In this document: piece after piece, positions 36,453 through 38,139 of the stretch
Numbering within the stretch: position 1 is the first letter of the stretch
Layout of the letters: every line of letters starts with the position of its first letter
Assembly (NCBI GenBank): GCA_963771045.1
Contig: CAVYRW010000004.1
Location: 1,568,001 to 1,632,000 of the forward strand
Direction of reading: 5' to 3'
Source of the DNA: Waddliaceae bacterium
GTDB taxonomy: Bacteria; Chlamydiota; Chlamydiia; Chlamydiales; SLFE01
Length of the DNA: 64,000 nt
Program-made: the position numbers and the translations under genes
The notes under the pieces: model-generated
Seen by the model: the letters and a program-made list of their open reading frames with translations, nothing else
What the model was told of the DNA's origin: nothing
The model's database searches: none

Positions 36453-36523
36453 CAAACGAGAAGATTTCGTCTTTTTCGACCCGAATAATAATAAATTTAA
36501 ACATACAATTTATCAAATCTTAA

Positions 36524-36582
36524 GGCTTTGTTGCGTAATTAACCACAGAGCTCACAAGAGCGCACAGAGAGAATATGAGAGA
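36524..36582 (+). repeat. Left extended terminal inverted repeat
   Basis: GGCTTTGTTGCGTAATTA-ACCACAGAG-CTCACAAGAG-CGCACAGAG-AGAATATGAGAGA. Confidence 0.88.
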
Positions 36583-36588
36583 TTTGAT

Positions 36589-37533
36589 TTAAGCTGCTAT
36601 TAATTCACTTTCAGGCATTCCCAGCTTTGTCATTATATTTAGTGCTTCACATTTTGCCCTTGATTCAGCCCTTTGGGTTTCCAGAGTTCTACTTCTTAAA
36701 TCATTTCCAAAGAATCGTTTAAATCTAAACATGGCTGTTTCTGCAAGTGATCGACGATGATAACCTTTCAACTTTTTCCATAATTTTCTTGCATCATCAT
36801 CACCTCCTAAACCTGAAATTTCCAGCAAACTGATATTCCGCATCTTCCAAGAAGGAGATATGTTTTCTCGAAAAACAGCATTCCTATTGGGTGGAATAAT
36901 AGGAATTGAGCCGTGAACTACATTTGCAGCATAGCATCGCTTAGTATCATAAGCCCCATCTCCATATGTGCGCTTAACTGATTTCGGCATTACCTCGAGA
37001 AGTTTTGGATACACTTCACAATCTGCAACGTTATTTTCAGTAAGAATTTCGAAAATAATTTCGTGAGAGTCAGGGCAGACTGCCAGATGGAGCTTTCTCC
37101 ATGTTCGCCTTTTACTGATTCCATGCTGCCTAACTTTCCATTCACCCTCTCCGTACACTTTCAAACCGGTTGAATCGATTACAATATTGGTGACTTTTTT
37201 TTTCGAAAGTTTCTTCAACTCTTGCCCCAACAACTTAGCTCTCCGACAAATTTGAGTATAAGAAGGAATCGATAAACCAACAGATAAAATCATAACAAGA
37301 GATGTCAAAAATCCTTCGAGTGCTCTCAATGGAAGATGAAAAACCGATCGAATAATGAGCGCGGTGAGAATAGCGTCATCAGAATAGAGTTTTGGACGCC
37401 CCTTTTTTCCTATTTCTTTTGGAGCCATCCACTTATTGATAGCATCTTCAGAAAACCAAACAGTTATGCTTCCCCTTTGAATAAGAGATTTGTTATAGTC
37501 GTTCCAGTTGCGAATGCGATATTTTGCCTTCAT
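36589..37533 (-). CDS. IS5/IS903-group DDE transposase, intact
   Basis: YRIRNWNDYNKSLIQRGSITVW, IDSTGLKVYGEGEW, RRTWRKLHLAV, GDGAYD, YHRRSLAETAMFRFK. Confidence 0.96.
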   Translation of the reverse strand: MKAKYRIRNWNDYNKSLIQRGSITVWFSEDAINKWMAPKEIGKKGRPKLYSDDAILTALIIRSVFHLPLRALEGFLTSLVMILSVGLSIPSYTQICRRAKLLGQELKKLSKKKVTNIVIDSTGLKVYGEGEWKVRQHGISKRRTWRKLHLAVCPDSHEIIFEILTENNVADCEVYPKLLEVMPKSVKRTYGDGAYDTKRCYAANVVHGSIPIIPPNRNAVFRENISPSWKMRNISLLEISGLGGDDDARKLWKKLKGYHRRSLAETAMFRFKRFFGNDLRSRTLETQRAESRAKCEALNIMTKLGMPESELIAA

Positions 37534-37617
37534 CTTGATCCTCCAATTTGTTGCAACTAAAAATTAGAGTATTAGGTATTTGTCGGCAAGCTCGCATTCG
37601 CCCTTTTTGGAGAAAAG

Positions 37618-38025
37618 ATGACTAGTACCCACACAACTGAAGAAGCCAACCAAAAAAGAAATGACCTTTTAACAGGGGAAATCATAGGTGCTGCGATTGA
37701 AGTTCATCGAAGATTAGGTCCAGGCTTGCTTGAATCGACATACGAAACTTGTCTTTGCTACGAGTTGAACCTTGCGGGTTTGAAAGTTAACCGGCAGATA
37801 CCAGTACCTATTATTTATCGTGATAAAAAGCTAGACTCAGGCTACCGGATCGATATGATAGTGGAAGATAAGGTTATTTTGGAGATAAAATCTGTGGCCA
37901 ATCTCTTGCCTGTTCATGAGGCCCAACTTCTATCCTATCTTAAGCATAATGGCGGTGGCAGAGGTTTGCTCATCAATTTCAATGTAAAACTTCTAAAAAA
38001 TGGGATTAGGCGTCTAATCATTTAA
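37618..38025 (+). CDS. GxxExxY protein (PD-(D/E)XK nuclease superfamily)
   Basis: IIGAAIEVHRRLGPGLLESTY, YRIDMIVEDKVILEIKS, HEAQLLSYLK, GLLINF; GGAG RBS. Confidence 0.93.
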   Translation: MTSTHTTEEANQKRNDLLTGEIIGAAIEVHRRLGPGLLESTYETCLCYELNLAGLKVNRQIPVPIIYRDKKLDSGYRIDMIVEDKVILEIKSVANLLPVHEAQLLSYLKHNGGGRGLLINFNVKLLKNGIRRLII

Positions 38026-38029
38026 TTCC

Positions 38030-38087
38030 TCTCTCATAATCTCTCAGTGAGCTCGGTGGTCTCAGTGGTGATTTATGCAACAACGCC
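38030..38087 (-). repeat. Right extended terminal inverted repeat
   Basis: Minus strand GGCGTTGTTGCATAAATC-ACCACTGAG-ACCACCGAG-CTCACTGAG-AGATTATGAGAGA. Confidence 0.88.
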
Positions 38088-38139
38088 AAATCTTAATATT
38101 ATTTAGTTAAAATTAAGCTTTAAATTAAGAGATTATTTT

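Follow-up and report, generated by a model that had tools for sequence, protein, structure and literature searches.

A predicted GxxExxY nuclease gene and its repeat arms travel within an IS903-group transposon of a Waddliaceae bacterium

In silico examination of a 64,000-nucleotide stretch of a Waddliaceae bacterium genome (contig CAVYRW010000004.1, positions 1,568,001 to 1,632,000; here named the window) revealed a 1564-bp IS903-group element of the IS5 family at window positions 36524 to 38087 that carries a GxxExxY gene next to its transposase gene. The element moves as one unit and has two-layer ends, and its passenger gene is under purifying selection and is exchanged with free cassettes. 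We interpret it, with slightly more confidence than doubt, as an IS903-group element fused with a selfish nuclease-repeat cassette, in which the element's own transposase moves it and the predicted nuclease acts at the repeat arms.

Results

The element is flanked by an exact 9-bp duplication, AAATCTTAA, at positions 36515 to 36523 and 38088 to 38096 (plus strand). It begins at the 3' end of the transposase gene with an IS903-type terminal inverted repeat (36524 to 36541, plus strand), of which 14 of 18 bases agree by eye with IS903B, and closes beyond the GxxExxY gene with a second such repeat (38070 to 38087, minus strand) that agrees, again by eye, at 16 of 18. Inside the first repeat lies a left arm (36542 to 36582, plus strand) of three CACnGAG-type words, at 36544, 36553 and 36563, followed by a purine tail; arms of this kind also surround free GxxExxY genes. 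It is mirrored by a right arm (38030 to 38069, minus strand), in which three CACnGAG words stand at an exact 9-bp pitch before the purine tail. The gene for an IS903-group DDE transposase of 314 amino acids (36589 to 37533, minus strand) and that for a GxxExxY protein of 135 amino acids, a predicted minimal PD-(D/E)XK nuclease (37618 to 38025, plus strand), diverge across an 84-bp spacer (37534 to 37617). This spacer is homologous to the region between the left end and the transposase start in passenger-free relatives; the GxxExxY gene starts at the position of their left terminal repeat, with their promoter region retained as the spacer. A promoter scan of the spacer gave no consensus promoter, and the promoter and terminator scan stayed at chance level.

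A first-pass annotation of the window had described the 9-bp duplication bracketing 1564 bp, the IS903-like ends and the two divergent genes, and these coordinates were confirmed. It had also placed both stop codons within about 7 bp of the inner edge of a terminal repeat. They do lie 4 to 7 bp from the inner edge of an extended repeat of ~59 bp, but not of the 18-bp end. Likewise, both 18-bp ends resemble IS903, as it had stated, but only 14 of 18 bases match between the two. No internal terminal repeat separates the genes, again in agreement with that annotation: the spacer contains a 7-mer resembling the core of the terminal repeat, TTGTTGC (near 37549), without a GG tip, which we did not count as an internal end because a similar stretch precedes the transposase start in passenger-free relatives.

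The first codons of the GxxExxY gene (encoding THTTEE, 37627 to 37647) resemble the peptide of an in-frame arm found in free genes such as L111 and are possibly, if speculatively, a decayed inner arm. The element is located within a stretch (36305 to 38934) that has a leucine-rich-repeat gene and is absent at the orthologous locus of genome G001, from another species of the genus; a short repeat near 38870 to 38920 has many copies in G001. Between 31267 and 36281, several housekeeping-like genes, for a UvrD-like helicase, a thioredoxin-like protein, PgsA and a symporter, are split by frameshifts, as long-read indel errors would give.

We then searched the genome for further full-length copies with different duplications, as proposed in the first-pass annotation. 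In total, 16 full-length copies were found, at least 99.7% identical and differing from the window copy by no more than 4 changes. Twelve of them have their own, distinct exact 9-bp duplication, and four have none. The GxxExxY gene is intact in all 16, one transposase gene has a 1-base deletion, and five of the six substitutions among the copies are synonymous. The element has thus recently multiplied in this genome.

The 9-mer AAATCTTAA by itself occurs 61 times in the genome, counting both strands. A check for an empty site revealed a single AAATCTTAA upstream of a paralogue (C4, ~1104470) of the gene downstream of the window copy, but no clean empty site at the orthologous locus, because G001 (88% complete, flanking DNA 94% identical) lacks ~2.6 kb around the element. 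At other sites, G001 has element copies that are up to 100% identical, five of them with different 9-bp duplications, and for one of these a clear empty site exists in the window genome. Such near-identical copies at other sites indicate recent transfer between species, with a shared binning error as the alternative. The 16 copies with their distinct duplications, the insertions in G001 and the linkage of gene and transposase described below uphold the earlier proposal that both genes transpose as one unit.

Analysis of 18 insertion sites revealed A(-1)/T(+1) in 23 of 36 half-sites, compared to 12 expected in AT-rich DNA (p = 0.0004). This bias is the core, YA-N9-TR, of the IS903 target motif WTTYA-N9-TRAAW (PMC2577343). 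Insertion therefore resembles ordinary IS903 chemistry with no sign of the nuclease choosing targets, and the targeting role suggested by the first-pass annotation found no support.

Circles or excision joints were not detected in the contigs of four runs, and contigs lose rare forms. In viral contigs, seven pattern matches were obtained, none with the transposase or the GxxExxY gene, and eight plasmid records contained GxxExxY relatives, all below 60% identity. RNA runs yielded two short contigs with the GxxExxY gene only, one of them with adapter letters, which are not evidence of expression.

Each end of the element consists of the outer 18-bp IS903 repeat and an inner layer of three CACnGAG words (~9-bp pitch) with the purine tail. 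The resulting imperfect inverted repeat spans ~59 bp, with 47 matches in a 60-base alignment, and the arms stand symmetrically, 1 to 12 bases inside both element ends. Among 43 GxxExxY loci not associated with IS903, a strict triple arm was found downstream of the gene at 17, upstream at 14 and on both sides at 11; none was found in 1,000 random windows. The strict downstream triple is missing at the other 26 loci, many of which have looser arms or other words. Furthermore, the 16 ends of eight armed elements contain 44 CACnGAG words, compared to one in the 40 ends of 20 armless IS903-group elements. These word counts and the arms at free genes show that the arms are a feature of GxxExxY genes and not of IS903.

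In IS903-borne copies, the upstream arm is never found at the gene (0 of 6) and stands behind the transposase stop instead. Both arms are retained although synonymous sites are near saturation. Likeness of the arms is 0.83 within one element versus 0.72 between elements, and an element's own second arm is the best match in only five of eight cases. Gene-less arm doublets exist in other genomes (L099, L183 and L191). In the window genome, about five solo arms lie outside the element despite 16 intact GxxExxY genes, which gives no sign of arm amplification there. A scan found no terminator-like site at the arms, an Rfam search matched no family near its gathering score (single match, E = 0.59), and no arm-bounded copy holding the transposase without IS ends was seen. 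A free GxxExxY cassette with both arms (L211, G098:C1:650860-651240) encodes a protein 82% identical to that of the window; its start codon lies within a AATATGAGAGA stretch, a sequence that also forms the tail of the left arm in the window element, and its neighbors are presumably dxr and rseP.

The transposase matches the IS5-family profile NF033579 with 289 bits (cut-off, 140), is 44% identical to the IS903B transposase, and has residues D120, D192 and E265, which are invariant in 26 aligned relatives. Among distinct transposase sequences, all seven with at least 67% identity to it and enough upstream DNA are accompanied by the GxxExxY gene (three of the seven are near-copies of the window element), and the arm is present in eight of eight. 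At 62% identity or less, none of 65 sequences carries the gene and none of 77 the arm. In this survey of IS903-group transposases, a GxxExxY neighbor is a property of close relatives, but not of distant ones. A pattern scan of metagenomes gave 129 stretches; among the 78 examined, 28 show an IS903-type end followed by an arm, two are complete two-gene elements (L252 and L267), and several are internally deleted derivatives. In one armed copy (L145), the transposase is intact and the gene is interrupted near its start, and three derivatives that have lost the gene or carry it in broken form are flanked by exact 9-bp duplications. Movement thus seems not to require an intact gene in cis, although the product might be supplied in trans. 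Armless sister elements also multiply with 9-bp duplications and without a GxxExxY gene.

Several other loci are related to the element in part. Other IS903-group families in the same genome (G000:C4:48230-49144, 400003-400917, 956422, 2230293 and 180795) are 34 to 46% identical and have neither passenger nor arms; two of these loci have a copy of the window element less than ~1 kb away. Short-element families with an IS903-type end and an arm (L221, L229, L253, L255, L263, L268, L270, L281 and L288) comprise at least three arm types, and in L221 the end abuts the upstream arm of an inward-reading gene. A deletion derivative of ~310 bp (L368, G000:C2:86178-86500) retains both arms, decayed tips and the last 68 transposase codons, the deletion being joined at a short CTCTC-type repeat. 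The locus L366 (G000:C4:997659-998663) contains the exact transposase and promoter spacer without ends, arms or GxxExxY gene. Its flank was not found in G001 or G002 and its junctions were not seen in four other runs; it may be strain specific or an assembly error and was given no weight.

The GxxExxY protein matches TIGR04256 with 148 bits (cut-off, 35) and PF13366 with 143 bits, the latter as its only match in Pfam. The G-x-x-E-x-x-Y motif is present (G36, E39 and Y42), and E39, D79, E89, K91 and Y107 are invariant in 49 aligned GxxExxY sequences. The protein thus has an E89-x-K91 motif, and it also has Q103-x3-Y107, which we take to be a RecB-type motif. The predicted active site is intact in all 16 copies. 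A structure model based on the 49 aligned sequences (pLDDT 90) has a minimal PD-(D/E)XK core; a single-sequence fold (pLDDT 34) was discarded. The best fold matches of the 49-sequence model were PD-(D/E)XK proteins (Z of 6 to 7.4 and none at 8 or above, rmsd of 2.7 to 4.2, 76 to 116 aligned residues), with Cas4 SSO0001, nuclease domains of restriction enzymes, AdnA/AddA and Hjc among the neighbors, none of which stands out. TnsA is absent among the fold matches listed, which still leaves room for a likeness to it. Foldseek gave no match at E ≤ 0.001 (best E ≥ 0.007), PADLOC gave only weak Cas4 matches (E = 0.017 to 0.03), and a sequence search of solved structures returned RelE only, at E ≥ 0.38, which was not taken as evidence. 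From the model, we confidently predict a PD-(D/E)XK core with a catalytic D...E-x-K.

The distribution of GxxExxY genes in the order is patchy (52 of 150 genomes), with copy numbers from none to more than 20. In one genome, tandem GxxExxY genes or fragments, each armed, are repeated with a period of ~350 to 540 bp (L200, L203 and L204; G016:C44:93800-94700, C30:108900-109800 and C5:35400-36900). GxxExxY/PDDEXK_3 is entered as "unknown," with many horizontal transfers, in a table of PMC3424549, and a literature search by title or start of abstract retrieved no paper on GxxExxY function.

Phylogenetic analysis placed the eight armed transposases in one clade (support, 100/99), whereas a clade of the seven IS903-borne GxxExxY proteins was rejected (AU test with 26 rows, p-AU = 0.002; a first quick tree left out 15 near-duplicates of 65 rows). 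Free genes from genomes G002 and G098 nest among these proteins (99/99). The dS values of the two genes disagree in both directions (0.42 versus 2.09 and 0.89 versus 0.20). Of 22 GxxExxY pairs, 13 are saturated; in the 9 whose dS is finite, dN/dS ranges from 0.04 to 0.13. These ratios argue for purifying selection, and part of the signal may date from a free-gene phase. The clade mismatch, the discordant dS and the low dN/dS taken together indicate that the gene is maintained and exchanged and does not co-diverge with the transposase. The co-phylogeny considered in the first-pass annotation was thus not observed: the gene is swapped with free copies and is not a fixed, co-evolving partner. Judged from the trees, the passenger seat is stable and the passenger is exchanged.

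A sibling element in the same genome (L367, G000:C4:1701314-1704285), with its own 9-bp duplication, encodes a transposase 80% identical to that of the window, and the 3' end of its GxxExxY gene is 99% identical. The gene is interrupted by an insertion of 1398 bp that has an 8-bp duplication and is presumably an IS256-like element. L367 is chimeric, since beyond the insertion it agrees with the window element at 99% and in its transposase at only 80%. This sibling suggests that plain homologous recombination between related elements is enough to exchange the gene.

Furthermore, the cassette was found on other carriers. A second IS903 lineage, L275, repeats the layout of the window element, with another arm and another GxxExxY subtype. 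Its 116-residue transposase fragment groups among armless elements; a single clade uniting all nine armed transposases, including L275, is rejected (p-AU = 2e-8). A full-length copy of this lineage was not found in 400 genomes, only short derivatives (family f8). On these sequences, L275 could be a second fusion, or else an existing shell could have received another transposase. In genome G016, an unrelated IS5-family element of ~1.4 kb, whose group we take to be IS1031/IS427-like, is present in many copies (C15, C30, C44 and C46; L192 to L199 and L202) with a 3-bp duplication. It harbors a complete arm-GxxExxY-arm cassette between the transposase and the right end, and both ends are visible at 4 of 12 loci examined. 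Siblings of this element in four other genomes end right after the transposase. In genome G072 (L115), an intact inner end is followed by the cassette and then by a second end, which indicates that the cassette in the G016-type element was captured by a second end.

Discussion

If the element is a fusion of an IS with a selfish nuclease-repeat cassette, its transposase alone would suffice to move the unit, and the predicted nuclease would likely bind and cut at the arms. The nuclease would then be a second selfish unit that favors its own retention and replacement and is dispensable for transposition. With one arm inside each end, the whole IS would take on the inverted-arm topology of a free cassette, so that cuts at the arms might, in analogy to TnpB, help the element to be retained or replaced through recombination. 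Cutting there would stimulate recombinational copying. The upstream arm may have reached the far end by mirror-copying between the ends, or the IS may have been nested inside an end-arm-gene-arm-end unit whose inner ends were lost.

It is unlikely, in our estimation, that the GxxExxY cassette is passive cargo, captured by chance and kept for a benefit to the host in repair or defense, with the arms acting as signals at the RNA level in 3' untranslated regions. Such signals would fit the same arm following each of the divergent genes in mRNA sense and the replacement, by the transposase-3' arm, of a 3' region of similar length in armless relatives; also, few solo arms exist in the window genome, and the other IS5 element took up its cassette by an ordinary route, through a second end beyond it. 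However, the mirrored-arm layout occurs on two transposase lineages, the gene is patchy and varies widely in copy number, and neither a terminator-like site nor an Rfam family was found at the arms. With PADLOC returning weak Cas4 matches only, the defense role named in the first-pass annotation also lacks support. We rate as still less probable an accessory nuclease that binds the arms and cuts the second strand or resolves a branched intermediate, like TnsA, a PD-(D/E)XK transposition nuclease (PMC3424549), beside TnsB. The symmetric position of the arms just inside the ends, the strict linkage of gene and transposase within the clade and the PD-(D/E)XK fold, with the Holliday junction resolvase Hjc among its neighbors, would all suit this role. 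Yet armless sisters multiply with 9-bp duplications without the gene, most GxxExxY genes are armed and have no DDE transposase, the gene does not follow the transposase tree, and Pfam gives no TnsA match.

Addiction, in which loss of the element would be lethal to the cell through the nuclease, had been another suggestion of that annotation and appears very improbable. The predicted active site is intact in 16 of 16 copies, but the element encodes neither an antidote nor a methylase, derivatives that have exact 9-bp duplications and in which the gene is broken or absent are common, and at 16 copies the loss of one would leave a shared antidote in place. An assembly artifact or chance neighborhood might be suspected from the many frameshifted genes of the host assembly; it is already refuted by the 16 copies with distinct duplications, by the recurrence of this layout in further genomes and in metagenome contigs, and by contigs from the short reads of other runs (1541 and 1536 bases), in which the transposase part is without difference and continues into gene and arm.

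More tentatively, GxxExxY proteins and three-word arms might form an undescribed class of selfish nuclease-repeat elements that has repeatedly fused with ISs, with the IS903 transposon as its substrate. In this wider sense, the nuclease acting at both mirrored arms would drive homing-like retention and content swapping, as a protein-guided counterpart of TnpB. The few solo arms, the lack of excision joints in the contigs searched and an exchange explicable by ordinary recombination argue against a selfish cassette.

The element provides an entry point to GxxExxY proteins, as its 1.56 kb unite the protein with candidate DNA sites and a carrier open to testing; for IS903, a papillation assay exists (PMC3003695). 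The element illustrates, too, how an IS can acquire two-layer ends and a stable yet exchangeable passenger. If the arms are nuclease sites, they would make a functionally uncharacterized enzyme family accessible to experiment; if the nuclease reads the array of 7-base words, this would amount to a mechanism new among mobile elements and might provide a compact site-specific enzyme.

Compared to known systems, the element shares with IS903 and IS903B the related transposase (44% identity to that of IS903B), the ends (14 and 16 of 18 bases), the 9-bp duplication and the YA-N9-TR core. It differs by its length of 1564 bp instead of 1057 bp, its second gene and the ~40-bp arms inside both ends. 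Like Tn7 with TnsA and TnsB, it has a predicted PD-(D/E)XK protein beside a DDE transposase and repeat arrays inside the ends. In contrast to Tn7, it has no TnsA family match, ATPase, targeting genes or third gene, it makes a 9-bp duplication, and its armless sisters move.

REP/RAYT systems (REPtrons) and TIRtrons likewise place a small gene for a predicted DNA-cutting protein within inverted repeats, with gene-less doublets elsewhere (PMC3733652). The fold predicted here by Pfam and fold searches is PD-(D/E)XK and not that of an HUH tyrosine transposase, and the arms are 7-base words at a 9-base pitch, whereas REPs are GTAG-tagged palindromes; a search of the main text of PMC3733652 found neither CACAGAG nor GxxExxY. 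TnpB and IscB of IS200/IS605 elements are IS-carried nucleases that are unneeded for transposition and bias inheritance (bioRxiv 10.1101/2023.03.14.532601 and 10.1101/2023.11.20.567912). They provide the functional analogy for a selfish nuclease cassette, with retention being presumed for the window element. Unlike them, this element has no RuvC domain, no guide RNA was found with Rfam, and its transposase is of the DDE and not the HUH type.

Transporter ISs (tISs) are ISs with passenger genes between their ends (PMC7986276 and PMC9330008). With 1564 bp and two genes, the element is such a transporter variant and not a simple IS903 (~1.06 kb, transposase only). A literature search by title and start of abstract revealed nothing on this layout, and the GxxExxY-arm nuclease-repeat cassette is probably undescribed. 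Like other tISs, the element is a single IS unit whose passenger lies between one pair of ends and moves together with it. It departs from them in that the passenger comes with cis repeats of its own, mirrored at the two IS ends, and in that alleles of the passenger are swapped with free copies.
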